This document shows positions 5,294-41,060 of a stretch of DNA of 64,000 nt, piece after piece. How positions within the stretch are numbered: the first letter of the stretch is position 1; each line of letters begins with the position of its first letter. The DNA comes from a virus. Below the pieces are notes generated by a model that saw nothing but the letters and a program-made list of their open reading frames with translations, was not told where the DNA came from and made no database searches. A program made the position numbers and the translations under genes. The stretch spans positions 32,001-96,000 of the IMG/VR virus record IMGVR_UViG_3300025600_000001, one strand, 5' to 3'.

Positions 5294-5770
5294 ATGAAGT
5301 CTACTTTTGAAGATGAACTTGTTTGTATGATTCCAAGACTTAAAAACTTCGCCTTTAGATTGACTAGGAATATTGAAAATAGTGAGGACTTGTTAAGTGA
5401 AACCATCTTACAATCATTGAAAAATAAAGCAAAATATAAAGATGATACGAATTTTAAAGGATGGATAACTACTATAATGAAAAACTGTTTTGTAAATAAT
5501 TATAGACGATCAGTTAGACACGGAATACAATTAGAACTCGAAGATGTGAAAGGCAATAACATTTGCACCAGTAGAGAAATCGACAATAAAGTATATTTAA
5601 ATCAGATATTAGATTTTATAAATAACCAAGATAAAAAACTAAGTATTCCAATGATTTTATTTTCACAAGGATTCAAATATGAGGAAATATCCGAAATGCT
5701 TGGTATTCCTTTAGGTACTGTGAAATCAAGAATATTTATAATGAGAGAAAAATTAACTGAAATTTTATAA
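5294..5770 (+). CDS. ECF-type sigma-70 family sigma factor
   Basis: Region 2 (SEDLLSET...FKGWITTIMKN) and region 4 (GFKYEEISEMLGIPLGTVKSRI) motifs. Confidence 0.9.
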   Translation: MKSTFEDELVCMIPRLKNFAFRLTRNIENSEDLLSETILQSLKNKAKYKDDTNFKGWITTIMKNCFVNNYRRSVRHGIQLELEDVKGNNICTSREIDNKVYLNQILDFINNQDKKLSIPMILFSQGFKYEEISEMLGIPLGTVKSRIFIMREKLTEIL

Positions 5771-11671: not shown

Positions 11672-11841
11672 AAAGATATGTATTTGCTATAACGATTACA
11701 GGATTTGGAGAAACTCCTGATGAAGCATGGAAAGATGCTGTTGAAGCTACTAATCTTGAAGATGATCCTATACCTGAAGAGGATATATACGATGAGTATG
11801 AAATGGATGATGATGAAGAAGTAGAGGACTATAGGAATTAG
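11668..11841 (+). CDS. Small acidic protein (57 aa, not in ORF track)
   Basis: MKRYVFAITITGFGETPDEAWKDAVEA...DDDEEVEDYRN; ATGA overlap with the upstream ORF. Confidence 0.6.
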   Translation: MKRYVFAITITGFGETPDEAWKDAVEATNLEDDPIPEEDIYDEYEMDDDEEVEDYRN

Positions 11842-11920
11842 AGATCAACGACAATCTGAATTTGCAGATATGTGGATTCAAAGTGGAATGTTTGGTATAT
11901 TAAATCTATGTCCTAGTTGA
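11831..11920 (+). pseudogene. Stranded 5' relic of the SF2 helicase gene
   Basis: IGIRDQRQSEFADMWIQSGMFGILNLCPS-stop aligns with the helicase N-terminus IRTRRQREFANLWLESNMMNIMNLCPR; ATA stands where ATG is expected. Confidence 0.85.
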
Positions 11921-11947
11921 TAATTAAATTGTAATTTTGTATATTTG
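11916..11947 (+). promoter_or_regulatory. Bacteroidota-type promoter for the GIY-YIG cassette
   Basis: GTTG-N20-TATATTTG; the ATG at 11952 follows 4 nt later. Confidence 0.65.
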
Positions 11948-11951
11948 TACT

Positions 11952-12776
11952 ATGGAAATAAATAAAAATTTAATTAGAGTTTCTGGTATCTATAAGATAG
12001 AGAATATAGAAACAAAAGAATGTTATATAGGGAGTACCTTAAATATTTACAATAGAGCACATTCCTATAAATGCTTAGGAAAACAAAATAAAATTCATAG
12101 TACAAATTTACAAAAAGCAATAAATAACTATGGAATAGATATTTTTACTTTAGAAGTTTTAGAAAAAGTATATTTTGAAGAAGGTGTTTTAAAAAGTGAA
12201 AAATTGAAAATTCTTCACGATAAAGAACAAATATATTCCGATAATACTAATCTAAAATATAATAAAAGAAAAAATATTAATAAAAATACTGGAATAACTC
12301 TATCAAAAGAAACCAAAGAAAAAGTATCTACAACTCTTAAACGAATTTTTAAAGATGGTACAAGAATAATAGGAAGAATTTATTCTCATAATATAAAAGT
12401 ATCTATGTTTACAATTACTGGAACTTTTATTAAAGATTTTCCTGGATTAGCCCATTGTGCAGAATATTTAAATGTATCACCCTCATCAATCAATTATGCG
12501 TTAAAAAGCAAAAGACATGTTATAAAAAATCATATTATATTGAAACTTCAAGATAAAGATGAAATTAAAAATTTTATAAATATTCCATTAAATAAAAATA
12601 CTAATGGAAAAGCTATAAAAATTCTAGATACATTAGACGATAGTATACTGGAATTTATAAATTGTAAAACTTGTGCAAATATTATAAAATGTAAAGTTGA
12701 TACAATAGTTATTGGTTATAAAAAAAATAGATTAATTAAAAAAAGATATAAAGTAATAACCTATGGAAGATATTAG
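11952..12776 (+). CDS. GIY-YIG homing endonuclease with NUMOD1-like C-terminal repeats
   Basis: SGIYKIEN...CYIGS motif. Start moved from TTG 11937, which lies within the promoter, to ATG 11952. Confidence 0.9.
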   Translation: MEINKNLIRVSGIYKIENIETKECYIGSTLNIYNRAHSYKCLGKQNKIHSTNLQKAINNYGIDIFTLEVLEKVYFEEGVLKSEKLKILHDKEQIYSDNTNLKYNKRKNINKNTGITLSKETKEKVSTTLKRIFKDGTRIIGRIYSHNIKVSMFTITGTFIKDFPGLAHCAEYLNVSPSSINYALKSKRHVIKNHIILKLQDKDEIKNFINIPLNKNTNGKAIKILDTLDDSILEFINCKTCANIIKCKVDTIVIGYKKNRLIKKRYKVITYGRY

Positions 12777-14047: not shown

Positions 14048-14878
14048 ATGGAGAAAGAAGATGTAATATTACCAGATGAAATTAGTAAAGTAGTTATATC
14101 AGCACCAAGAGATCTTGCTATAATTGGAATTCCTAAAAGTGGAAAAGGAACTATATTAGGAAATTTTACATTAACTCATAATGCTCTTGTACTAGATCTT
14201 GAAAAAGGAGGATATGAATATATTCCTGCTAGAAAAATGTCTACTTATACAGGACAGGAAACAAGTCAATGGGAAAGTTTTCAAAACTTTATTAAATATC
14301 GTAATCTTTTATTGGAAAATAAAGGAAAATATGAATATCTAATTATAGATGGATTATCCGATCTTGATAGTTTATCCGACCTCGGTGGAACTCTGTCTTA
14401 TATGAATGGAATTATAGGTAAGAATTTTAATAGACCTAAATTAGCAAATGGATTATATGGTGAAAAATATAAACCGACTGATCCAGAGTTTAAATCAGTA
14501 TTAACATTACCTGATGGGGCTGGTTATATGAGTACTCGAAATTGGTTTCTTCAACAAATTGAAATGTTTAGACAAATAGCACCATATAGAATTTATGCTG
14601 CTCATATTGCTGATAAATATATTAAAGATAATGGAAAAGAAGAAGTGATAGGTAGTGAAATTTCTCTTACTGGAAAATTAAAAACAATTTTTGCAAGTAG
14701 AGTGACTGCTTTAGCAAAATTGGTAGTAGATGAGAATGAACGTTATCTTAATTTTGATGTTCAAAATGATAGTATTGTTGCAGGAAGTAGATCTCCTAAA
14801 TTGAAAGGAAAGATACTAATTTCAAGACAAGAATCAGATGGAACTATAATAACCTTTTGGGATAATATTTATGGATAA
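14048..14878 (+). CDS. AAA/P-loop ATPase (AAA_24, Sak4-like)
   Basis: GIPKSGKGT, LVLDLEKG, LIIDG, GAGY, AAH; lies next to an SSB-like gene. Confidence 0.8.
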   Translation: MEKEDVILPDEISKVVISAPRDLAIIGIPKSGKGTILGNFTLTHNALVLDLEKGGYEYIPARKMSTYTGQETSQWESFQNFIKYRNLLLENKGKYEYLIIDGLSDLDSLSDLGGTLSYMNGIIGKNFNRPKLANGLYGEKYKPTDPEFKSVLTLPDGAGYMSTRNWFLQQIEMFRQIAPYRIYAAHIADKYIKDNGKEEVIGSEISLTGKLKTIFASRVTALAKLVVDENERYLNFDVQNDSIVAGSRSPKLKGKILISRQESDGTIITFWDNIYG

Positions 14879-16568: not shown

Positions 16569-17387
16569 ATGTATAACAAGAATAGAAAAGAGCAAGTTAA
16601 AAATCTTTGGGATACTGGATTAGGAGCTACAGAAATATCTAAATTTTTAAATATTTCAATAAGTAATGTTTCAACTTATTTAACACAATCCTTAGGATCA
16701 GGTAGAAAAGGAAGATTTATTTATAAAAGAAGAATATTTACGCTAAATGAATCTTTTTTTGAAAATATAGATACAGAAGCAAAAGCTTATTTTTTAGGAC
16801 TACTTGCTGCAGATGGTAATTTAAGTAGTTCTCAGAATTCAGTTAGAATAGGATTGCATGAAAAAGATAAAGAAATATTAGAGTGTTTTCGAGAAAATCT
16901 AAATTATACAAAACCTCTAAAATTTGTTAAAAAAGTTAAAGAACCTGGATGGAATAGAAGTGATCAGTATTTATTAGAAATAAGCTCAACTATTTTTAGG
17001 AAAAGTTTAGAGAAACATGGATTAACACCAAACAAATCTCTCACATTAGTTTTCCCAACAACTATTCCTTTAGAGTATCAACATGATTATATTAGAGGAT
17101 ATTTTGATGGTAATGGTTGTATTCATATAGACAAACGAGATCACGGTAGTATAATTATTGCTAGTAGTGAGATGTTTTCTAAAAGTCTTATTGAAGTATT
17201 ACAAACTTTTGGTATTAGATCAAGTACATCTAAACACTATAAAGCTAATTGTTTTTATACTCGTTCATTTGGATATGATAATGTAGAGAATTTTTATAAT
17301 TTCATGTATAAAGATTCTACTATTTTTCTTGATAGAAAAAAACAAATATTTGAAAATTGGATAAATAAAAGAAATAAGAAATTATGA
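16569..17387 (+). CDS. LAGLIDADG homing endonuclease with N-terminal HTH
   Basis: YFLGLLAADG and YIRGYFDGNG motifs; promoter-like TATCTTTA at 16546-16553. Confidence 0.9.
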   Translation: MYNKNRKEQVKNLWDTGLGATEISKFLNISISNVSTYLTQSLGSGRKGRFIYKRRIFTLNESFFENIDTEAKAYFLGLLAADGNLSSSQNSVRIGLHEKDKEILECFRENLNYTKPLKFVKKVKEPGWNRSDQYLLEISSTIFRKSLEKHGLTPNKSLTLVFPTTIPLEYQHDYIRGYFDGNGCIHIDKRDHGSIIIASSEMFSKSLIEVLQTFGIRSSTSKHYKANCFYTRSFGYDNVENFYNFMYKDSTIFLDRKKQIFENWINKRNKKL

Positions 17388-20028: not shown

Positions 20029-20118
20029 ATGTCAGACATTAAGACGTACAAAGTATCACAAGCAGCAATGCTAGCAGTGCTGCCACCAGAATCCACAAGA
20101 ACGTATAATTCTTCATAA
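20029..20118 (+). pseudogene. Stranded 5' relic of the DUF932-like gene
   Basis: MSDIKTYKVSQAAMLAVLPPESTRTYNSS-stop versus MKESYSVSKAMLISTPIPESTRTYKS. Confidence 0.88.
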
Positions 20119-20120
20119 AT

Positions 20121-20151
20121 TTTGAAATGTCATAGGAATTAGTTACATTTG
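20121..20151 (+). promoter_or_regulatory. Bacteroidota-type promoter for the GIY-YIG cassette
   Basis: TTTG-N19-TACATTTG; the ATG at 20156 follows 4 nt later. Confidence 0.75.
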
Positions 20152-20155
20152 GAAT

Positions 20156-21127
20156 ATGAAAAATATAACTATAAATTTTATATTAGCAAGAACTTCTGCT
20201 AATTATGAAGATATACATTGTACTGGTATATATAGAATATATCACATCATTAAACCATCTATTTTTTACATTGGAAGTGCTTCTTCTAATAAAAGATGGA
20301 GAGAGGGTTTTAAACAACGATGGGTAGAACATATCAAAGAACTTCGTAAAAACATTCATCATTCTCCATTCTTACAAAGAGTTATTAATTTATATGGAAT
20401 AGAAGGATTAAGATTTGAAATAATTGAAAAATGTGAATCTTCTATATGCATACGTAAAGAACAATTTTGGTTAGATTTTTATAAACCATTTAAAAATAAA
20501 GGTTATAATACTTGTAAAATTGCAGGAAGTTCTATGGGTTATAAATTTTCTGAAGATCAAATAAAAAATAGAAAAAAAATATTTCAATATGATTTAAAAG
20601 GTAAATTCATTGAAGAATATAAAAGTTTAACTGATGCAGCAAAACAAACAAATACTAGAATTAATGAAATCAAAGATTGTGCTAAAAAAAGAATACAATA
20701 TACGAAAGGACATATATGGAGATATGAAAAAGAAAGTGTAGATTCTATATTTCATATTAAGATTTTTAAGATAGCGTGCTACTTTGATGGACAATTTCAA
20801 TTTGTAGATTCTTTACAAAAAGTAGAAGAAAAAACAAAAGTCCATAAAAAGTTTATTTATAACTGTATTAATAAAAATCTAAATAAAACATCTAATAATT
20901 GGTTATTTAGAAAATACGATATTGAAAATTGTCCAGAAAAAATTGATTGTGTTACAGTATTAAGATATAAATATGAACTTATAGAAAATGAAAAATCTAT
21001 CATTTTTAATACGTTAATATTATTAACAAGTTATTTAAAAGTTCATAGAAAATATTTTGAAGAAAAAATGAAAGTAACAAATGAAATAGTTTTTAATAAT
21101 AAAATAATTAAAAAATTAATAAAATGA
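20156..21127 (+). CDS. GIY-YIG homing endonuclease with NUMOD1
   Basis: TGIYRIY...FYIGS, EQFWLD, YNTCKIAGS, QYDLKG. Confidence 0.9.
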   Translation: MKNITINFILARTSANYEDIHCTGIYRIYHIIKPSIFYIGSASSNKRWREGFKQRWVEHIKELRKNIHHSPFLQRVINLYGIEGLRFEIIEKCESSICIRKEQFWLDFYKPFKNKGYNTCKIAGSSMGYKFSEDQIKNRKKIFQYDLKGKFIEEYKSLTDAAKQTNTRINEIKDCAKKRIQYTKGHIWRYEKESVDSIFHIKIFKIACYFDGQFQFVDSLQKVEEKTKVHKKFIYNCINKNLNKTSNNWLFRKYDIENCPEKIDCVTVLRYKYELIENEKSIIFNTLILLTSYLKVHRKYFEEKMKVTNEIVFNNKIIKKLIK

Positions 21128-21999
21128 AAGAAAGTTATTCAGTTTCTAAAGCAATGTTAATAAGTACACCTATACCAGAGAGTACTCGTACTTATAAAAG
21201 TTTTTCTCACAAACAGTTAATAGATTTAACTCTTGAGGGTATTCACCATGCAGGATTTCAAGTGGGAAAAGAATTATATTCTTCTGCAAAAGATGGTCTT
21301 GTAGCTAATGGAAGATATACTATAGCAAATATAGCTGATTCAGAAATGCAATTACAAATTACATGGAGAAATAGTTATAATAAAAGTTTACCACTAACCT
21401 TTTCACTCGGTGCTATGGTGTTAGTATGTTCCAATGGAATGCAAAAATCTCAAGGAATGGGATCTTTTAAGAAAAAACATCAAGGACAAATTCAAAGTTT
21501 TACTCCACAAGCTATAGGCGAATACATCAAAGGAGCTGAAGAAGTATTTAAACAAATGCAAATAGAAAGAGAGCAAATGAAACAAGTCACACTCTCAAGA
21601 ACGCTGCAAGCAGAGATTATAGGAAAAATGTTTATAGAAGCAGAATTTATTAAGTCTACTCAATTGAATATTATCAAAAGAGAACTTGATAATCCTACAC
21701 ATGATTATGGAGATCCTAATAGTTTGTGGTCATTGTATAATTATACAACTTTTGCAATGCGTGAATTGCATCCATCTTTATATCTACAGGATCATATTGA
21801 TGCTCATTCATTCTTTGTCACTGAATCAGGAATCATAGTTAATACTCCTGAACCTATTACAATTCGTCCTGTAGAAGATAAGAGACAATTAAACTTGTTT
21901 GATGAACTTCTTAATCAAGAAACAGAAGAAGTCTTGGCTGAAGTGTATAATAGTGAAGAAGAAGAAGAAGAGGAAGAATGGGAACCAGAACAACTATAG
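21124..21999 (+). CDS. DUF932/DUF945-like protein
   Basis: WRNSYNKS...GAMVLVCSNG...KKKH and SLWSLYNYTT motifs; acidic tail. Confidence 0.75.
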   Translation: MKESYSVSKAMLISTPIPESTRTYKSFSHKQLIDLTLEGIHHAGFQVGKELYSSAKDGLVANGRYTIANIADSEMQLQITWRNSYNKSLPLTFSLGAMVLVCSNGMQKSQGMGSFKKKHQGQIQSFTPQAIGEYIKGAEEVFKQMQIEREQMKQVTLSRTLQAEIIGKMFIEAEFIKSTQLNIIKRELDNPTHDYGDPNSLWSLYNYTTFAMRELHPSLYLQDHIDAHSFFVTESGIIVNTPEPITIRPVEDKRQLNLFDELLNQETEEVLAEVYNSEEEEEEEEWEPEQL

Positions 22000-22220
22000 G
22001 TGCAAAACCTGCAATAGTAAAAGTTCCAGGAACTTTTATTAAGATTGGTGATTACAGAATAATAAAATCAAGTGTGAAGAGGTATCAACCAAGTAAAAAT
22101 GGATATATCAACATCTATTTTAACTCCTCAATAAATCATCCTGATTTTAAGAGTTTTCACTATACATCAACTAAGTTACAACAAGAAGTTTTAGACTATT
22201 TAGATTCAATTTATTTATGA
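21978..22220 (+). CDS. Hypothetical protein
   Basis: 80 aa; its stop overlaps the ATG of the UDG relic. Confidence 0.55.
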   Translation: MGTRTTIGAKPAIVKVPGTFIKIGDYRIIKSSVKRYQPSKNGYINIYFNSSINHPDFKSFHYTSTKLQQEVLDYLDSIYL

Positions 22221-22345
22221 ACAAAAGTAAAACAATACTATCAGAAGAGGCTTTTGAGCCTCTTTTTGGTAGTTGGTGGCCTAAGATTAACAAATTCTCT
22301 GTTATTTTATTTGTATATTCTACTTATTTAGTATATATTTGTTAG
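22217..22345 (+). pseudogene. Stranded 5' relic of the uracil-DNA glycosylase gene
   Basis: MNKSKTILSEEAFEPLFGSWWPKIN... versus MNNLDWKKFEPLFGTWALKIK. Similarity ends near 22290 and the frame runs on to a TAG in the promoter region. Confidence 0.85.
22310..22341 (+). promoter_or_regulatory. Bacteroidota-type promoter for the LAGLIDADG cassette
   Basis: TTTG-N20-TATATTTG. Confidence 0.75.
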
Positions 22346-22369
22346 ATTAATTTAATACAACATTACTAT

Positions 22370-23350
22370 ATGACATATTTTAAACTTACTCCAGAAATTC
22401 ATAAAAATATAGCAGATGAATATATTTCATCTATAACTACTCAACAAGATTTAGCAAAAAAATATAATGTTAGTACAGTTATGATTTCAAATATATTAAA
22501 AAAATTTAAAATTCCTACAGATCATCGAAGAGGATTTTATAATGTAGATATTAATTATTTTAAAATTATAGATACACCTAATAAATCATATTTTTTAGGT
22601 TTATTTCATGCCGATGGAAGTAACTCTGAGGAGCATAACTGTGTTAGAATTTCTTTACAGGAAAAGGATAAAGAAATATTAGAAAAATTAAAAAAAGATA
22701 TAAAATATTCAGGTCCTTTATATTATTTAAAAAAACAAGGAAATAGAAGTAATCAATTTTCATTAAATATTGTAGCAAAAGAATTATCACAAGATTTGGT
22801 AATTCTAGGTTATCCTAAGAATAAAACTTACAAAGTAGTATTTCCAGAATACTTAGAACAGTCATTAGTAAGACATTTTATTAGAGGATTGTTCGATGGA
22901 GATGGATGTATTCATGCTAAATATAAACATAGTTTAAGTATCGTTGGTACATGTAATACTTTGTTAGGAGTAAAAGATTATTTACAAGAAATATTAAATA
23001 TAAATTCTGTAATAGTAGAAAGTAAATCTAAAAATATATTTAGATTAAGTATATGTAAAAAGATAGATATATTCAATACATTATGTCATTTATATGAAAA
23101 TAGTGAATTGTATTTACAAAGAAAATATGACATCTTTCATCAAGTGTACATGATTCAGAAAGAACATTTATATTGGCAAATATACTGTAAAAATTTAAAA
23201 ACTAATGAAATTAATATTTTTAAAAATATGCAAGAAACTAAAGAATTTTTTGGATTAAAATCCTATGCAGCAATATCTTATTGTATCCATAAAAGTAAAA
23301 CTAAAATTTTTAGAAAAACGTATTATATAAATTTATTGAAAAATGAATAA
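22370..23350 (+). CDS. LAGLIDADG homing endonuclease with N-terminal HTH
   Basis: YFLGLFHADG and FIRGLFDGDG motifs. Confidence 0.9.
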   Translation: MTYFKLTPEIHKNIADEYISSITTQQDLAKKYNVSTVMISNILKKFKIPTDHRRGFYNVDINYFKIIDTPNKSYFLGLFHADGSNSEEHNCVRISLQEKDKEILEKLKKDIKYSGPLYYLKKQGNRSNQFSLNIVAKELSQDLVILGYPKNKTYKVVFPEYLEQSLVRHFIRGLFDGDGCIHAKYKHSLSIVGTCNTLLGVKDYLQEILNINSVIVESKSKNIFRLSICKKIDIFNTLCHLYENSELYLQRKYDIFHQVYMIQKEHLYWQIYCKNLKTNEINIFKNMQETKEFFGLKSYAAISYCIHKSKTKIFRKTYYINLLKNE

Positions 23351-24134
23351 TTTAGATTGGAAGAAATTCGAACCACTTTTTGGTACATGGGCTTTAAAAA
23401 TAAAGCCTTTTTTTGACTTAGGAGGTTTTGATAAAATATATGAGTTTCTTAAAAAAGAGTCAAAAAGAGGTAAAGAAATCGCACCTATGTCATCTCTTGT
23501 ATTTAGAGCATTTCGAGAGACAGACATAAATACTCTTAAAGTAGTAATTGTTGGTTTAGCACCATATCATACCTTTTATAATGGATCGTCTATTGCGGAT
23601 GGTTTGTGTATGAGTTGTTCTATTACTAGTAGATTACAACCTAGTCTTTCTAATTTCTATAATGCTATAGAACGAGAACTTTATAATGGACTTAATTTAA
23701 ATATGTATAAAAATCCAGATCTTACCTATTTAGCCAGAGACGGAATTCTTCTATTGAACTATGCTCTCACCACTAGTAAAAATAAACCAGGGGATCATTG
23801 TGTTCTTTGGGAACCTTTTATGAAATTTCTATTTGAACAGGTGTTAGATACTATTGGAGCTCCTGTTATTTTCTTAGGACGTGAAGCAGCCAAACTAGAG
23901 AGATATACAATGCCTTTTAATTGGATATTTAAGTTATCTCATCCTGCCTCAGCAAGTTATCAAGGTATCGAATGGGATTCTGAAGGAACATTTAAAACTA
24001 TAAATAAGATTTTATGGGAGCGAAATAAAGAAACGATAAATTGGTTACAATTAGATAGTATAAACGAAAAGGAGATAAAAAATGAAGACAAAGTTAAAAA
24101 ACCAGGAAAACCTAAATTTAGAAGTTCAAATTAA
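23343..24134 (+). CDS. ung: Uracil-DNA glycosylase (family 1-like)
   Basis: KVVIVGLAPY (GQDPY variant), ADGLCMS, PSL, GILLLNYALT, HPAS. The usual catalytic Asp is replaced. Confidence 0.8.
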   Translation: MNNLDWKKFEPLFGTWALKIKPFFDLGGFDKIYEFLKKESKRGKEIAPMSSLVFRAFRETDINTLKVVIVGLAPYHTFYNGSSIADGLCMSCSITSRLQPSLSNFYNAIERELYNGLNLNMYKNPDLTYLARDGILLLNYALTTSKNKPGDHCVLWEPFMKFLFEQVLDTIGAPVIFLGREAAKLERYTMPFNWIFKLSHPASASYQGIEWDSEGTFKTINKILWERNKETINWLQLDSINEKEIKNEDKVKKPGKPKFRSSN

Positions 24135-24146
24135 AAAGAAATACTC

Positions 24147-26453
24147 ATGATTTTAGAAAAACAAACAGATAATATTATACTAACAGAAGGAGATGTCTCA
24201 GAGAGTATAAATATGGAATTGGATTTGGATTCTGCTCAGATTTTGATGCAGATGTTAAGTAAAAATTTGTATTCTGATGCTATTGGTAGCACTGTTAGAG
24301 AAACCTGTAGTAATGCTTTAGATAGTCATCGAAAAGCAAATACAGATGATCCAATTATTGTTAGTTTTAAATCAAATAATGATAATACCTATTCGTTTTG
24401 TGTTCAAGATTTTGGTACTGGTCTGGATGCTGATGATGTAGAAAACATCATTAGCAAATATGGAAAATCTACTAAAAGATTAGAAGCTAACTCATTGGGT
24501 ATGATGGGATTGGGCTTTAAATCACCATTGGCTTATTCATCAAGTTTCACTTTTGTATGTCGTAAAGATGGTATGGAATGGACATATATGATGTATGAAG
24601 GAGAAGATAGTAATAAGATTGATTTGTTGTATTCTCAGAAGACAATCGAAAAGAATGGTGTAAAAGTTATTATTCCTGTAAAGTATTCAGATAAAAATGA
24701 ATTTCTTACTAAAATTAGGGAACAACTTGCATATTTTGAAAATGTATTCTTTGATACAGGTAATGTTAGTAATGATTTTATAATTCATCGTGCTGAACAT
24801 TATCAGATCTCTCCATTAGTTAATTCTAGTTTGATGCACATTTGTCTGGATAATGTCTATTATCCTATTGATTTTGAGAAATTAGGAATTCCTCCTATTC
24901 ATGTAGTTGTTGGTTTACGATTTGGTCTTAGTGATGGAATCTTTCCAACACCAAATAGAGAAGCAATAAGAATGACCCAAGAAGCTAAGAAGACTATTTT
25001 ATCTAAAATAGCTAAAGTTGCAGATGTTTTTATAACTATGTATAATAATACAATAGTTGCTACTTCTGACATACAAACTGTTTTTGAATATTATAAATCA
25101 CAAGACAGATTGGTAACAATTAGTGATAAAACCTATAATGTATTTCAGCTTAAGAACTATAGTAGTATAAAGATTACATCTCCTACATTAATAGGAGTTG
25201 AACTACTTAATTTAGAAGATTTGTATGAAGATAGAGAGAATATTCTTGGTGAATATCAAATCAGATATAATATCAAGAATAGAAAAATGAGTGAAGTAAA
25301 ATCTGGAGGGAGCAGAAATATACGACTTTATGATTTAAATAACACTCACTATTATCTCTATAATCAACCTATCTCTGGAAAGAAAAAAGAATATCTTAAA
25401 AGTATATGTAGTTATGGTGATAGTCATGTTTGCAAAAAAATAGATCCTTATAAATTAGGATTTAATTCTAGAAAAAGTTGGTCATCTACTAGTAGTTATT
25501 ACAGTATACTCAATCTTAAAAACTATAAAAGGACTGAATGGAGACAAAGAATTAAAGAGTTTCAATTTATTCAACAGAAATTTACAGAAAAGTTTATTGG
25601 TGTTGATAGTATGGAGATTCCTCAGAGTTACATAGATGCTAGAAAAAAAGAGAGAGTTTCGTCTTTAAATAATGGTAATGGAAGAAGAGTTAAACTTACA
25701 GGAGAACTTTTTGGTAAAACTGCTATGCCTCTTGAGAGATATGTAAGTGGTCAAAATTGTAAATTTGTTGCAGACACTTATATTCTTGCTGATATTCCTA
25801 AATATAAAGGATTGACTGTATACGACAGTTACGACAATCAACCTCTACTTGATAGTCTATATTACGTAACACGTAACTGTAGACATAAACTAAGAATTCT
25901 AAGTTTCTCAAATAGAGAGATGAAAGTTCTAAATGACATTAATATTCATAATCTAATATCTTATAGTAAATTTATGGAAGGAGAAAATAAACCATTTAAA
26001 AGATTAATTACAGCACATTTAATTAATACATTAATGTCTACGTACAATCATGTATTTAGTAAACGAGATTATCTAACTAGTATTTCACAACCTCTTTTAG
26101 ATAAACTTAATAAGTTATCTGACTATAAAAATGATTATTATTGTTATGCAGATAGTAATATCTATGTAAGTATGCTATCTGTAGCAGAAGAACACATGTT
26201 ATTTGATATGAAAATCTATTCTGATTATTTAGATATTAAGAATGTATTTTTGAAATTAACTTTTCTTAATACTGTAATGAAAACTATAAAAGATTATGAG
26301 AATGATCCGATGATTCCTATACTTGTAGATTTGTTTAAATATTATAGATATAGAATTGATTATAAGAACTATCATATCCCTCTTAATGAAATGATTGATT
26401 TCGATTCATTACTACTAACAGATGAAACTGTTAACGAATTAACTATTATTTAA
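24147..26453 (+). CDS. rIIA: rIIA-like protein (N-terminal GHKL/Hsp90-like ATPase)
   Basis: LYSD...VRETCSNALDSH, DFGTGL, GKSTK, GMMGLGFKSPLAY, TPNREAI. Confidence 0.88.
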   Translation: MILEKQTDNIILTEGDVSESINMELDLDSAQILMQMLSKNLYSDAIGSTVRETCSNALDSHRKANTDDPIIVSFKSNNDNTYSFCVQDFGTGLDADDVENIISKYGKSTKRLEANSLGMMGLGFKSPLAYSSSFTFVCRKDGMEWTYMMYEGEDSNKIDLLYSQKTIEKNGVKVIIPVKYSDKNEFLTKIREQLAYFENVFFDTGNVSNDFIIHRAEHYQISPLVNSSLMHICLDNVYYPIDFEKLGIPPIHVVVGLRFGLSDGIFPTPNREAIRMTQEAKKTILSKIAKVADVFITMYNNTIVATSDIQTVFEYYKSQDRLVTISDKTYNVFQLKNYSSIKITSPTLIGVELLNLEDLYEDRENILGEYQIRYNIKNRKMSEVKSGGSRNIRLYDLNNTHYYLYNQPISGKKKEYLKSICSYGDSHVCKKIDPYKLGFNSRKSWSSTSSYYSILNLKNYKRTEWRQRIKEFQFIQQKFTEKFIGVDSMEIPQSYIDARKKERVSSLNNGNGRRVKLTGELFGKTAMPLERYVSGQNCKFVADTYILADIPKYKGLTVYDSYDNQPLLDSLYYVTRNCRHKLRILSFSNREMKVLNDINIHNLISYSKFMEGENKPFKRLITAHLINTLMSTYNHVFSKRDYLTSISQPLLDKLNKLSDYKNDYYCYADSNIYVSMLSVAEEHMLFDMKIYSDYLDIKNVFLKLTFLNTVMKTIKDYENDPMIPILVDLFKYYRYRIDYKNYHIPLNEMIDFDSLLLTDETVNELTII

Positions 26454-28613: not shown

Positions 28614-28778
28614 ATGAAACAGAAATTATTAAAATCGACAATTAGTGTACTAGAAGCCTTAAAAGAAGATGCGAATATGGCATTGAATGGAACTTGGGAT
28701 TGTACTGAACCAGGTTTCAGAGCCCAAATTAGAGCAATTAATGGAGTTTTATCAGAACTAAAAGCAAAATTAAAATGA
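28614..28778 (+). CDS. Small hypothetical protein (54 aa, not in ORF track)
   Basis: MKQKLLKSTISVLEALKEDANMALNGTWDC...KAKLK; its stop overlaps the relic ATG. Confidence 0.6.
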   Translation: MKQKLLKSTISVLEALKEDANMALNGTWDCTEPGFRAQIRAINGVLSELKAKLK

Positions 28779-28843
28779 TAGAAGGAATTAAAAAAATAAA
28801 TTCTGAAAGTGATTATCGTAAGATACAACTTGATTCAAGTTAA
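28775..28843 (+). pseudogene. Stranded 5' relic of the PD-(D/E)xK nuclease gene
   Basis: MIEGIKKINSESDYRKIQLDSS-stop versus MIKGINKNIDEKSYRTICLDSA (12/22 identical, ungapped). Confidence 0.88.
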
Positions 28844-28911
28844 AAAAGAGAAAAGTTATAGGATTATATATTTAATTTTTGTATATTTATATATAACTAA
28901 GTTATAATAAG

Positions 28912-29685
28912 ATGATTGGAATCTATAAAATAACAAGTCCTTCGAATAAAGTTTATATAGGACAAAGTTGGAATTTGATTAAAAGAGAGAAAGATTATAA
29001 GTCTTTAGCTAATATAATTAGACAAAGAAAAATATATAATTCTATGAAAAAATATGGAGTAGATAAACATATTTTTGAAATACTTCATATTCTTTCAGAT
29101 ACTACTATACAAAAAGAATTAGATTATTGGGAAATATATTATTGGAAGTATTTTATATCTCAAGGATTTGAAATGCTTAATATTAAAGAACCAGGAAAAG
29201 GAGGAAGATTAGATATTGAAACTAAAGAAAAGATATCTAAATCAAATAAGGGAAGAATTAGAAGTGAAGAAGTAATGAGTAAAATTAAGAATTTAGATAG
29301 ATATAATCTTCCTATTCTAATGTTAAATTTAAATGGAAAAATCATAAGAGAGTTTAGAAATATAAATTCATGTTCACGAGAATTACATGTTAGTTCTTCT
29401 AATATAAAATCAGTAATGAATGGTAAAACTAAAACATGTTTATCTCATATTTTTATAAAAAAAGTAGATTATGATGAATCTAAATTTACACAAATAATAG
29501 TTCCTGGTGGATGTACTGAGGTAAATCAATATGATTTAGATAATAATTTTATTAAAAGTTTTTTAAGTTTTAAAAATATTAGATTAGAATTAGAATTAAA
29601 AATAGGATGTGATCCTAATATTATAAGAGCTTGCAAATCTGAAAATAGAATAGCTTATGGTTTTAAATGGAAATATAAAAATTAA
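28912..29685 (+). CDS. GIY-YIG homing endonuclease with NUMOD motifs
   Basis: MIGIYKITSPSNKVYIGQS, ETKEKISKS, QYDL...AYGFKWKY; promoter-like TATATTTA at 28882-28889. Confidence 0.92.
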   Translation: MIGIYKITSPSNKVYIGQSWNLIKREKDYKSLANIIRQRKIYNSMKKYGVDKHIFEILHILSDTTIQKELDYWEIYYWKYFISQGFEMLNIKEPGKGGRLDIETKEKISKSNKGRIRSEEVMSKIKNLDRYNLPILMLNLNGKIIREFRNINSCSRELHVSSSNIKSVMNGKTKTCLSHIFIKKVDYDESKFTQIIVPGGCTEVNQYDLDNNFIKSFLSFKNIRLELELKIGCDPNIIRACKSENRIAYGFKWKYKN

Positions 29686-31415: not shown

Positions 31416-31460
31416 AATCAAATTTTCGTATCTTTAATGTTCACAAACAATGAAAAGATA

Positions 31461-32504
31461 ATGGCAAAAAAAGCAGAAGAAATAAAAGAAAAAAAGGATA
31501 AATTGCGAGAAGCAATAGATCAAATGAATAAAAAATATGGTGTAGGTTCAATAATAACTCTTGATAATAATAACTCTTTAGAGAAATATGAGGTAATTAG
31601 TTCTGGATCTATTGGATTTGATTATATCACTCTTGGAACTGGGGGATGGGTTAAAGGTAAATTATATGAACTAATGGGCTGGGAAGGAGTTGGGAAGAGT
31701 ACTATTTGTGGACATGCTGCTGCTGAGTGTCAAAAAACTGGAGGAAAAGTTTTATATGTAGATGGTGAACATGCTTTAGATAAGAATTATTTTCAGGCAT
31801 TAGGAGTGGATACATCTAAAATGTTAATAGCTCAACCATCCTCAGGAGAAGAAGGATTTAATATTGCAGAAGAAATGATGAAATCAGGGGAACTTGATTT
31901 GGTTATTATTGACTCTGATAGTTCTTTAATTCCAAAAGCTGTGTTAATGGATGGAGAAATTGGAGATTCTTCTATAGGAAAAAAAGCTAAGTTAAATAGT
32001 AGTGCTTATCCTAGACTAAAAAATGCTCTTGTAGAAACTAAAACTTGTGTTTTAGTGGTTAGTCAATTTAGAGAAAAAATTGGTCAAATGTTTGGCGATC
32101 CAAAAATTACCCAGGGAGGACACGCACTAAAATATTATAGTGATGGAAGAATTGAAATAACCAGAACATTAGCTAAAGAAGGAGATGAAATCTATGGTGC
32201 AATTATAAAGATAAAAACAATTAAGAATAAAATGGCTCCACCTTATAAGAAAAATGCGTTTGAGATTATTTATGGTAAGGGAGTTGATAAATATAAAGAA
32301 CTTATTGAACTTGGACAGGAATATCTAATTCTTAAGAAATGGGGAGAAAGTATTACTTATACTGGAACTAAATACAAAATAAGTGAGTTTAATACTCTTC
32401 TTAGAGATAATGATGAATTCTTTGAAGAGATCAAACAACAACTTATCAATATCTTGATGCATACAGAAGAGTTACCAATTGATGAAATATCTGAAGAAGA
32501 CTAA
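31461..32504 (+). CDS. recA: RecA recombinase
   Basis: GWEGVGKST, DGEHALD, SQFREKIGQMFGDP, GGHALKYY, KNKMAPP. Start placed at MAKK because ATG 31437 abuts the promoter-like TATCTTTA. Confidence 0.93.
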   Translation: MAKKAEEIKEKKDKLREAIDQMNKKYGVGSIITLDNNNSLEKYEVISSGSIGFDYITLGTGGWVKGKLYELMGWEGVGKSTICGHAAAECQKTGGKVLYVDGEHALDKNYFQALGVDTSKMLIAQPSSGEEGFNIAEEMMKSGELDLVIIDSDSSLIPKAVLMDGEIGDSSIGKKAKLNSSAYPRLKNALVETKTCVLVVSQFREKIGQMFGDPKITQGGHALKYYSDGRIEITRTLAKEGDEIYGAIIKIKTIKNKMAPPYKKNAFEIIYGKGVDKYKELIELGQEYLILKKWGESITYTGTKYKISEFNTLLRDNDEFFEEIKQQLINILMHTEELPIDEISEED

Positions 32505-33349: not shown

Positions 33350-33508
33350 ATGAAAGTACTACTAATTATCGTAATATTATTAGTTACAGTTATTTCTATA
33401 ATATTAATATTTATTTCTATAAAAGGAATAATTAGATCTCATTATGAATTAAAAGAGATAGATAGACAAATTAAAGAATTACAGAATGAAAATCAGAAAA
33501 GGGTTTAA
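33350..33508 (+). CDS. Small membrane protein (52 aa, not in ORF track)
   Basis: MKVLLIIVILLVTVISIILIFISIKG followed by a charged tail. Confidence 0.5.
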   Translation: MKVLLIIVILLVTVISIILIFISIKGIIRSHYELKEIDRQIKELQNENQKRV

Positions 33509-39763: not shown

Positions 39764-40176
39764 TAGGATTGTGTTAACAAATACAAAGTTTTTGCTGCTT
39801 TGCCACTAAGATCTTGGGCTAAATTCTCAATATTAGAATATCCTTTAGAACTAGCATAGTTTTCTAATTGACTTGCAAAATTCTTTAATTCTATAAGAAC
39901 TTTTTCAGGAGCACCTGGAATATAATCAATAATTGGTTCAAACTTATAGACTTTTACCTTTCTTCCTTCATACCCCATTAGTTCTTCTAAAAATGTATCT
40001 TTTGCATTTACTACATCATCCCAAACATTTAATGCAGAGTGTTCAGCATGAGAAGGAGTCTGTAAATGCAGTAGGTGTATCTGCTCAAAAAAATATGAAA
40101 ATCTTTGAGCAATTGTTTCTAAAGATAACTCTCCCCCTGAGGAGGAGAGCATATTTTGAGGAAATAATGATTTCAT
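39763..40176 (-). CDS. Ferritin/Dps-like four-helix protein (DUF5856-like)
   Basis: HLLHLQT...AEHSAL...DTFLEELMG...KTLYLLT. Confidence 0.75.
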   Translation of the reverse strand: MKSLFPQNMLSSSGGELSLETIAQRFSYFFEQIHLLHLQTPSHAEHSALNVWDDVVNAKDTFLEELMGYEGRKVKVYKFEPIIDYIPGAPEKVLIELKNFASQLENYASSKGYSNIENLAQDLSGKAAKTLYLLTQS

Positions 40177-41060
40177 TATCCTAAATTTGTAGTTGTTGTC
40201 GTTGTTGTACTACTTGTACTGGTACTAGTAGAACTAGTAGACGAACTAGTTGTTGATGTAGAGGTAGTAGTAGGACAAGGATTAACTGTACAAGTTGCAC
40301 CAGTGATATTATTACCATCAAGAGTTACAGCAGCAGTTAATGCAAATGCTCTACCTACTAATTTAGCAGAAGTAGTCATTGTTACAGATGCCTGTGCAAT
40401 AATATTACCAACCATATTTGAGAAAGTACCAAGTGTAGCAGAGGATCCTACTATCCAATATACATTTCCTGCTTTAGTACCATTAGTTAATGATACATTA
40501 GATGATGAAGCTGTAACTAATGTTGAAGGAACTATAAATACAAATAATGCATTTGGATTACCTCCGCCATTTAATGTAAGAGTTCCTGTAATAGCAGCAG
40601 AACTTCCAAAGGTATATACACCTGGTATAACGGTAGTACCACCGATATCTGTACTTAGTGTAGAAGTAGGAGTTAATGCTCCTAAACAGTCAAAAGCAGT
40701 TTGTGCACTTACTTTTCCAGCAGCAGCAACTCCATCAGTTATAAACTTTGTTCCATTTACAATTCCTGGTGGAAAACCTACCACTGATGTTCCTGGGGAT
40801 AAACCAAGATCACCATTTACTACTGATGATCCTGTATTTGTAACAGTAGAAGCACCTAACACTACAAAGTGTGCAGCATCTCCTAATGTGGTACAAGTAA
40901 TAGGACCAGGTAAAAAATTACAACATTGATATGCAGGGATTTCCTGCCATTTTCCTACTCTGGGCATCTTTCTCCTAAGGATTAAAGATCCCGCTACAAC
41001 TCTCCCAGATCCATCGTATCTAACATAGGCATTGAGCGGACGTTGACTAATAGTTCCCAT
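40176..41060 (-). CDS. Ice-binding-like protein (DUF3494) with shared N-terminal module and Thr/Ser tail
   Basis: FVVLGASTVTNTGSSVVNGDLGLSPG, PGVY, GTLTL, NVYWIVGSSATLG, GRAFA...AVTLD. Confidence 0.9.
   Translation of the reverse strand: MGTISQRPLNAYVRYDGSGRVVAGSLILRRKMPRVGKWQEIPAYQCCNFLPGPITCTTLGDAAHFVVLGASTVTNTGSSVVNGDLGLSPGTSVVGFPPGIVNGTKFITDGVAAAGKVSAQTAFDCLGALTPTSTLSTDIGGTTVIPGVYTFGSSAAITGTLTLNGGGNPNALFVFIVPSTLVTASSSNVSLTNGTKAGNVYWIVGSSATLGTFSNMVGNIIAQASVTMTTSAKLVGRAFALTAAVTLDGNNITGATCTVNPCPTTTSTSTTSSSTSSTSTSTSSTTTTTTTNLG

Follow-up and report, generated by a model that had tools for sequence, protein, structure and literature searches.

A LAGLIDADG endonuclease gene between two UDG starts in an environmental phage genome: a probable end-replacing homing cassette

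Arrangement of the UDG locus

Homing endonuclease genes and the conserved genes that they occupy are examined here in a 64,000-nt window that covers bases 32001-96000 of the viral contig IMGVR_UViG_3300025600_000001 (117,568 bases, with direct terminal repeats). In this window, we found a free-standing LAGLIDADG homing endonuclease gene placed 24-27 codons inside a former reading frame of a UDG (uracil-DNA glycosylase) family gene, with a full UDG gene after it and the old UDG start stranded upstream. All features of the locus are on the + strand. From left to right, an 80-codon gene taken from the list of open reading frames (ORFs) (21978..22220, TGA at 22218-22220) forms the left anchor and is followed by the stub of the older UDG start (22217..22297), which was recognized with a hidden Markov model (HMM) of homologous N-termini. 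Next come a promoter-like box of the Bacteroidetes type found by pattern search (TTTG-N20-TATATTTG, 22310..22341), the endonuclease gene (22370..23350, 326 aa, Pfam LAGLIDADG_3), and the working UDG-family gene (23343..24134, 263 aa, Pfam PF03167), which is chimeric. Within the latter, an identity switch and trees delimit a putatively imported 5′ part (codons 1-155, 23343..23807) that travels with the endonuclease gene, and reads and trees delimit a block that is common to a GIY-YIG-bearing variant of the locus (23808..23932) and may be the right anchor or the end of a conversion tract.

The initial annotation had described a relic UDG start whose ATG overlaps the stop codon of the upstream gene, and this description holds. 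The ATG of the stub (22217-22219) forms an ATGA overlap with the stop of the 80-codon gene and opens a 42-codon ORF (22217-22345, TAG at 22343-22345) with the translation MNKSKTILSEEAFEPLFGSWWPKINKF..., compared with MNNLDWKKFEPLFGTWALKIKPFF... at the start of the working UDG. The reported match of 9 among 12 residues (FEPLFGSWWPKI against FEPLFGTWALKI) was also confirmed. Over the same 12-codon core, the two copies share 23 of 36 bases, with four codons identical, five synonymous, and three replaced. For comparison, an alignment-driven scan provided 80 viral-contig loci that have the gene order DUF932 - (small gene) - UDG - ... - HATPase - 471-aa gene. An HMM built from the first 50 residues of 119 UDG homologues, with the protein of the window excluded, detected the stub at profile positions 2-23 (E = 2.9e-5, 25.3 bits) among 43,235 six-frame segments from the window and the 80 loci, and the only better matches were real UDG starts.

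Noise in AT-rich DNA could also produce a 42-codon ORF with some resemblance to UDG, and the pairwise alignment score of the stub (55) is below the maximum from 300 composition-preserving shuffles (56), such that this score is not decisive alone. Against such a chance resemblance stand the E-value from the profile without the window's own protein, the position of the stub ATG in an ATGA overlap, which is also seen at the real UDG start in 16 of the 80 relatives, and the exact coincidence of the stub with the segment that differs between two read alleles described below. The probability of a chance resemblance is negligible.

The two starts belong to different N-terminal subtypes. The stub is of the subtype '...LSEE.F.PLFG.WW..I...', which is uninterrupted in 9 of the 119 homologues (e.g., P0015 and P0105), and the working start is of the subtype '...L.W..FEPLFG.WA.KIKPFF'. 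The stub ends just before P22, which is near-invariant in the family, and the invariant F23; this end can be placed only to within about 9 nt (22288-22297).

The full promoter pattern that the initial annotation had proposed is present, with TTTG, 20 nt, and TATATTTG at 22310-22341 on the + strand and 29 nt between the box and the endonuclease ATG. The loci L002 and L078 have the same TTTG-N20 form of the box. Its -7-type element, TANNTTTG, occurs once per 1404 nt across all loci and lies within 80 nt 5′ of 7 of the 14 endonuclease genes examined. We take TTTG with the -7-type box to be the Bacteroidetes promoter consensus. A scan of the window with a generic sigma-70 pattern was uninformative (39 sites versus 30.8 expected). 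At the other end of the endonuclease gene, its stop and the UDG ATG at 23343 overlap by 8 nt (ATGAATAA), as had been annotated. A hairpin of eight pairs followed by a T run was observed at 23389-23408, inside the imported UDG 5′ end and at the position that corresponds to the end of the stub. It could have a role in target recognition or attenuation; the count of terminator-like hairpins was 1 versus 0.9 expected in shuffles, and the hairpin may be due to chance.

The endonuclease ORF matches Pfam LAGLIDADG_3 in two stretches (E = 8.6e-13), with the motifs ...LGLFHADG... and ...IRGLFDGDGC..., and the residues D82/G83 and D176-G179 are invariant among 38 endonuclease homologues. It is of full length, similar to six full-length homologues of 326-335 aa that are 50-64% identical and share the C-terminus ...YY[IL]N.L.NE. 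A helical DNA-binding part at the N-terminus is followed by two LAGLIDADG domains, and the protein ends with a C-terminal extension. The AlphaFold model (pLDDT 87.7) contains two helix/four-strand units. A Foldseek search with this model gave 143 PDB matches at E<=0.001 with TM scores of about 0.4-0.55; the top matches are all LAGLIDADG proteins, and the set includes I-AniI, I-LtrWI, I-SmaMI, I-OnuI, PI-SceI, and intein endonuclease domains. A PDB search with the sequence only found nothing at E<=1. The model and the conserved residues together indicate an intact endonuclease gene with a predicted LAGLIDADG fold.

Ancestry of the UDG gene and its alternative alleles

The UDG gene at 23343 (PF03167, E = 4.3e-9; E = 3.9e-26 for its profile against the family-1 UDGs in PDB) is the sole UDG match in the 117.6-kb genome. 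Its N-terminus is complete, as the family profile aligns from position 2 (E = 6.4e-26). The motif G-Q-D-P-Y-H of the solved family-1 UDGs (alignment with 3tr7) is G-L-A-P-Y-H in the window (23553-23570, UDG residues 71-76) and G-[LM]-[ASC]-P-Y-H in the relatives, such that the whole family lacks the Asp but retains the H-P-[AS] motif. In family-1 UDGs, this Asp is the catalytic residue that activates the water molecule. Judging from these motifs, the phage UDG-family proteins may not be ordinary uracil glycosylases.

The metagenome contig L082 has the same backbone as the window. Its 80-codon gene is identical at 199 of 223 bases (89%) up to ...TTATTTATGAA, where the similarity ends, and beyond this point, L082 has a hairpin, a GIY-YIG gene, and a UDG that starts with MEIQTK. 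Between the UDG genes of the window and L082, the DNA identity is 61% over the first 456 nt, 96% over the 125 nt at 23808-23932, 69% over the next 128 nt, and 53% in the tail. At the protein level, residues 25-154 of the window UDG are 60% identical to P0002 (the UDG of L082) and 75% to P0004/P0005, and for residues 155-200, the corresponding values are 100% and 67-74%. These opposite trends rule out a simple difference in constraint or rate along the gene. Consistent with this, P0004-6 are the rows nearest to the window in the tree of the N part (codons 1-154), and the window is sister to P0002 with a support of 98 in the tree of the C part (codons 155-240). Approximately unbiased tests, for which the groups were chosen after the identity profile had been seen, rejected the swapped groupings (p = 0.00076 for window+P0002 in the N part and p = 0.0024 for the other). 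Identity profile, trees, and tests together indicate that the UDG is a chimera, in which the first ~154-155 codons are of other ancestry than the last ~100. A foreign origin of the first ~154 codons is what homing with co-conversion predicts.

This foreign 5′ part bears on whether the endonuclease ORF is internal to a group I (or II) intron, in which case splicing would join the stub, as exon 1, to the body of UDG, and the apparent new start would belong to the intron. Short unannotated first exons beside phage endonuclease genes are known, for example at the ICP1 terminase gene as described in PMC10448857. Insertions of the intron or intein type also occur in the phage group studied here. In relatives, the HATPase_c gene is split by a LAGLIDADG ORF at the precise boundary of query residues 121 and 122, and no residue is duplicated (L034 7072-10394; L039 1892-5214; L042 7080-8232; L077 6218-9337; L090 1853-5111; L003 7066-10731). 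This interruption looks like an intron or intein insertion, in which case the same endonuclease superfamily would live differently next door. At the UDG locus, however, no Rfam family reached its gathering score in the 64 kb, and no intron family was found at E<=10 in 21900-23600. In addition, the N-terminus encoded by the UDG ORF is complete and begins at an ATG that overlaps the endonuclease stop, the ratio of five synonymous changes to three replacements between the stub and the working copy argues for protein-level selection on the working copy, and the foreign segment includes the 5′ 154 codons rather than the insert alone. An intron is thus very unlikely. As a candidate class, an endonuclease encoded by a group I or II intron was rejected because a ribozyme core is lacking and the gene start is duplicated rather than split. 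An intein was rejected because the TAG at 22343-22345 ends the stub ORF before the endonuclease ATG and the UDG frame differs from the endonuclease frame.

Sequencing reads provided population-level information on the locus. The runs that contain the window are labelled as peat metagenomes. In two of these (X1 and X2), the window has depths of 577 and 297, and minor contigs have depths of 10.5 and 13.2, respectively, which puts the ratio of the two alleles by contig depth at about 55:1 and 22:1. Both minor contigs match the window as far as 22221, apart from about 10% differences within the upstream gene, and after 22221, they carry exactly the letters of the GIY-YIG cassette of L082. The minor contig of X1 has a joint from 22221 to 23808, with about 1293 nt between these anchors versus 1586 in the window, and the 125 nt from 23808 were assembled as a separate contig. 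In X2, a loose end behind 23932 has the letters of L082. Thus, a single community contains two unrelated cassettes as alternative alleles bounded by the same anchors, and the LAGLIDADG gene has a presence/absence polymorphism at the UDG site, with the minor allele in the same runs lacking the gene.

Two further runs contain parts of the locus. In X4, a run of another study, a 151-nt contig crosses the stub junction (22172-22321) with three differences. In X3, an unrelated soil run, the pieces at >=99% identity among the matches listed are two 200-nt contigs within the cassette (22323-22522 and 23373-23570) that are identical to the window, and the six listed pieces of the HATPase gene differ by 6-19%. 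The X3 pieces have a depth of about 3 and may come from a mixture of phages; they are weakly compatible with one cassette on diverged backbones.

Recurrence of the layout in relatives and in the window

Among the 80 viral-contig loci, the Pfam scan (ORFs of at least 127 aa plus two small ones) identified a GIY-YIG gene directly 5′ of UDG in at least six (L002, L003, L022, L042, L045, and L078), and the metagenome contig L082 also has one. In all seven loci, a stub of the old UDG start is present 5′ of the GIY-YIG gene. These stubs range from 1-2 to 13 codons: five or six codons in L002 (MNWEKF), L078 (MKWENF), L022 (MNWEK), and L045 (MNWDK), MNWEKFKNKF in L042, MIWETFKDKFHES in L003, and an old start reduced to ATGAA(T) in L082 and the minor allele. 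The N-terminus profile detects just the two longest of them (E = 0.056 and 0.14) and is blind to stubs under about 10 codons. Perfect GC-containing hairpins were observed between the stub and the GIY-YIG gene in L003 (5109-5160) and L082 (2650-2690); they could act as terminators that shield the cassette from transcription coming from upstream, or as regulatory structures similar to those of T4 endonuclease genes.

The initial annotation had reasoned that the proposed layout would be contradicted by relatives that lack the endonuclease gene and nevertheless keep both the relic and a second start. In the 74 other viral-contig loci, which have no recognized endonuclease at the UDG site, the same profile, with its lower limit of about 10 codons, found no second UDG start (all second matches at E>1).

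The recurrence also bears on a local tandem duplication, in which the 5′ end of UDG would have been duplicated first and the endonuclease gene would have landed between the copies later, with no import of a foreign UDG segment. Such a history is expected to give the same gene order, and short duplications are common at repair junctions. Against it, just 23 of 36 bases are shared by the two copies, whose different N-terminal subtypes are each present in other phages, the chimera breakpoint lies 465 nt into UDG and far past the duplicated 24-27 codons, and the same arrangement is found with a different nuclease at the seven loci with stubs of 1-2 to 13 codons. We therefore consider a tandem duplication improbable.

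The GIY-YIG cassettes may also leave traces in the UDG start itself. In L002, L003, L042, and L082, the start MEIQ[TK]K is encoded inside the last 22-28 nt of the endonuclease gene, as the second frame of the conserved C-terminal ...W-K-Y-K... of the enzyme, and an ME-type prefix of this kind begins 23 of the 119 homologues. In L065 (5960-6000), a UDG that starts with MEIQTKERLNW... retains the last GIY-YIG codons (...IWKYKQKND*) in the other frame despite the loss of the endonuclease gene, and the end of DUF932 lies 12 nt upstream. From these sequences, L065 looks like an endonuclease deletion that was forced to keep the 3′ end, since this end holds the UDG start, and ME-type prefixes look like scars or signatures of endonuclease occupancy.

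For the LAGLIDADG gene, scans of viral contigs with the UDG or the endonuclease as a single protein gave no relatives. At the UDG site, the gene is absent from all 80 viral-contig relatives and from the 12 metagenome loci (out of 13) that include the UDG start. Two endonuclease homologues with 61-62% identity, P0124 and P0125, come from Logan contigs of 2699 and 1866 bp, which are also the contig sizes of the UDGs P0033 and P0025. These two UDGs start with MNSLGW and MNKLNW, respectively, and the window UDG starts with MNNLDW. P0124 probably lies beside P0033 and P0125 beside P0025 on the same contig. A distant LAGLIDADG relative in L102 is located behind a UDG gene, with no duplication.

The window contains seven ORFs with endonuclease domains, and four of these are preceded by a stub of the start of the downstream gene (two GIY-YIG/NUMOD, one NUMOD1/I-HmuI-like, and one LAGLIDADG). 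The stub alignment scores are 92 for the GIY-YIG gene at 11937 before a helicase gene, 62 for the NUMOD1 gene at 20156 before DUF932, 55 for the LAGLIDADG gene at 22370 before UDG, and 51 for the NUMOD1/I-HmuI-like gene at 28912 before a gene of 352 aa. No 5′ stub was found at the other three (GIY-YIG at 14871, LAGLIDADG at 16569, and HNH at 33486). Behind the seven genes, no 3′-end stub scored above the shuffled maximum, except for a marginal 21 versus 19 at the DUF932 cassette. The initial annotation had proposed that the same layout in a structurally unrelated nuclease family implies convergence or a general mechanism. The shared layout is supported by these four genes and by the GIY-YIG genes at the seven UDG loci; the convergence considered in the annotation probably reflects a general outcome of double-strand-break repair more than an adaptation made family by family.

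Among the other cassettes of the window, the DUF932 cassette (20029..21127, + strand) consists of a start stub (20029-20118), a box TTTG...TACATTTG (20121-20151), and a NUMOD1/GIY-YIG-like endonuclease gene (20156-21127). Its stub matches the uninterrupted DUF932 start of L082 at 89%. In another viral contig, L077 (3024-4536), a homologue with 50% identity to this endonuclease is located directly 5′ of DUF932, and thus the DUF932 cassette also recurs elsewhere. The helicase cassette has a stub ...IRDQRQSEFADMWIQSGMFGILNLCP at about 11834-11917 and a GIY-YIG gene (11937-12776) whose end overlaps the helicase start at 12763. The cassette at 28775-29685 has the stub MIEGIKKINSESDYRKIQLDSS (28775-28843) and the NUMOD1/I-HmuI-like ORF (28912-29685), followed by the 352-aa gene from 29691.

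Regarding the source, the window has giant virion-type ORFs of 3288+ and 1657 codons, and among named phages, its UDG is nearest to those of Cellulophaga phage phi14:2 (34%) and Bacteroides crAss-like phages. The source was read as an environmental crAss-like phage. A blastn search of 21000-25000 against 50,697 deposited phage records found no match at the DNA level. In the named gut crAss-like phages that have an 'endonuclease' or second 'UDG' beside UDG (cr108_1 and PhiCrAssBcn5), the layout is not present. Other genes observed in the window encode a sigma-70-family protein with regions 2 and 4 (5294-5770), RecA (31437-32504, E = 4e-79), and an ice-binding-like protein (40176-41060, PF11999, E = 5e-51).

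Proposed mechanism, known systems, and significance

Taken together, the locus is probably an end-replacing homing cassette in a crAss-like phage, made up of a host-type promoter, the LAGLIDADG endonuclease gene, and a replacement 5′ end of UDG. In a mixed infection, the enzyme would cut endonuclease-free UDG alleles near the K-I-K-P-F codons, where the stub ends. The break would be repaired from the cassette-bearing genome, such that the promoter, the endonuclease gene, and the donor UDG start are copied into the recipient. The right-hand exchange would take place inside UDG, here at about 23808, and the left end would join at or left of the old start, and this start would survive on the left side of the insert. 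With 13 of 36 bases unlike those of the stub, the imported start would presumably escape cleavage. Translation of UDG would either be coupled to that of the endonuclease ORF or re-initiate after it, and the stub itself would be functionless, although it might offer left-hand homology in a further round. The stub could be either the backbone's own old start or the left homology arm of the cassette as in the WHO model.

Several observations weigh against this reading. No close relative was found that combines the backbone of the window, an empty site, and an uninterrupted UDG of the stub type; L082 and the minor allele, the only relatives with this backbone, carry another cassette, and the uninterrupted genes of the stub's subtype are on other backbones. 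The nearest relatives of the UDG 3′ part (P0002, P0003, and P0007-9) do not have the 'WW' subtype of the stub, which hints at more than one past replacement. Beyond the shared 125-nt block, the identity to L082 falls again (69%, then 53%), and the UDG 3′ part is thus itself patchy, with no clean 'native' backbone. Distant LAGLIDADG relatives (28-41% identity) were present at 79 loci in viral contigs, and none of the 16 loci that could be tested, i.e., those with a usable downstream ORF under a crude rule, has a 5′ stub. The pairing of P0124 with P0033, like that of P0125 with P0025, is read from equal contig sizes only, and the proposed target site from the end of the stub only. The full TTTG-N20 box is not enriched in the window (four found versus 3.2 expected by chance), and the promoter box is meaningful only through its position; two of the four full boxes are directly 5′ of the endonuclease genes at 20156 and 22370.

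The missing empty-site relative, the identities of just 50-64% to the nearest endonuclease homologues, and a stub subtype unlike that of the nearest relatives of the UDG 3′ part would also suit a cassette that arrived as proposed but has become a fossil. Its endonuclease would now be immobile or without cuttable targets, and the layout would be the scar of one half-illegitimate repair. This appears doubtful, since the endonuclease ORF is of full length with invariant predicted catalytic residues and since one sample contains two different cassettes that segregate at the locus. Among the listed X3 pieces, those at >=99% lie inside the cassette and the six in the HATPase gene differ by 6-19%, which is weak evidence in the same direction.

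The proposed cassette resembles the mobile endonuclease ORFs (mORFs) of fungal mitochondria, which, according to the account in PMC3630166, make gene hybrids in Allomyces macrogynus (atp6), Glomus sp. (atp6, atp9, cox2, and nad3), Rhizopus (atp9), and Mortierella (cox2). As described there, a LAGLIDADG or GIY-YIG ORF is located inside a conserved gene with no intron or intein, a foreign copy of the gene end keeps the gene whole, and the native end is left on the far side as an unexpressed duplicate; the copies are diverged in DNA but similar in protein, and trees place the inserted end elsewhere. In contrast to the mORFs, which replace the 3′ end and are often fused in frame by that account (PMC3630166), the phage cassette replaces the 5′ end. 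The host is also a phage rather than an organelle, and the cassette brings a start codon that overlaps the endonuclease stop and a promoter-like box. A replacement of the 5′ end means that the cassette must supply the start codon and, apparently, the promoter.

A second similar system is the WHO homing elements of Torulaspora and Lachancea yeasts, which target FBA1 (Coughlan et al. 2020, PMC7282813). In the description given there, an endonuclease gene and a resistance-conferring gene end act as a unit, a property that would apply to the phage cassette by analogy; a leftover fragment of the target gene is present and serves as a recombination site; and the gene halves have discordant phylogenies, with repeated replacement speeding the evolution of the gene end. 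The WHO elements are intein-derived, depend on diploid meiosis, replace the 3′ end, and form clusters of WHO genes and fragments (PMC7282813), whereas the phage system would involve co-infection and the 5′ end, with one endonuclease per site and three nuclease families. Cleavage by WHO6 was demonstrated experimentally according to the same source (PMC7282813), whereas cleavage by the phage enzyme is a prediction. Features common to the mORF and WHO types were found at the UDG locus, namely an endonuclease gene that abuts a full-length target gene, a fragment of the same gene end on the other side, and a proximal part of other ancestry. The end replaced, however, is 5′ rather than 3′, which makes this locus a mirror-image variant.

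In T4-like phages, the free-standing seg and mob homing endonucleases undergo 'intronless homing' with co-conversion of flanking markers, as described in the review PMC2988022. Their own regulatory signals and start/stop overlaps with neighboring genes are similar to those of the phage cassette, and the break repair in mixed infection that co-converts adjacent gene sequence (PMC2988022) is what we propose for the latter. By that description, the T4 genes either occupy intergenic positions or divide a gene such that it yields two working polypeptides (Aeh1 nrdA/mobE and T4 gene 39/60/mobA; PMC2988022). In contrast, UDG is left undivided but not untouched, with its end both duplicated and replaced; the text of the review contains no word beginning with 'duplicat' (PMC2988022). 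With the intron and intein enzymes I-AniI, I-OnuI, I-SmaMI, and PI-SceI, the phage endonuclease shares a predicted two-domain LAGLIDADG fold and conserved acidic residues, and the apparent target is likewise in a conserved stretch of a housekeeping gene. It differs from them in having no ribozyme, an ORF out of frame with the target, and a stop codon after the stub; the host gene would be kept unharmed by end replacement at the DNA level rather than by RNA or protein splicing. In the main texts of open-access articles, we did not find a description of this 5′-end-replacing layout in phages.

These patterns suggest, with population-level support, that a free-standing endonuclease gene can settle in a conserved phage gene with no intron or intein, by replacement of the gene start at the DNA level. 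It is possible, although we propose it only tentatively, that the 5′ end of UDG is a battleground in which LAGLIDADG and several GIY-YIG cassettes are rival alleles, each with its own host-type promoter and a UDG start that is self-resistant but perhaps not rival-resistant. Serial replacement would then rewrite the first ~155 codons and leave datable scars (stubs and MEIQTK- and MN.L.W-type starts). The value of the locus lies mainly in the clean evidence and in the fact that two rival cassettes coexist at a single site; their presence at the same anchors in one sample offers a natural system for the competition between homing elements. For the annotation of phage genomes, a short 'hypothetical' ORF 5′ of an endonuclease gene may represent the stranded start of a gene, the cleavage site of an enzyme is predicted by where its stub ends, and N-terminal prefixes such as MEIQTK may mark past or present endonuclease occupancy. 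Trees of such target genes may be chimeric near the 5′ end, and the genes should be split before they are used for tree inference. If the battleground reading is true, endonuclease genes would reside in conserved phage genes by a third general means, 5′-end-replacing cassettes, in addition to introns and inteins, and the stubs would reveal the cleavage sites of hundreds of uncharacterized enzymes.

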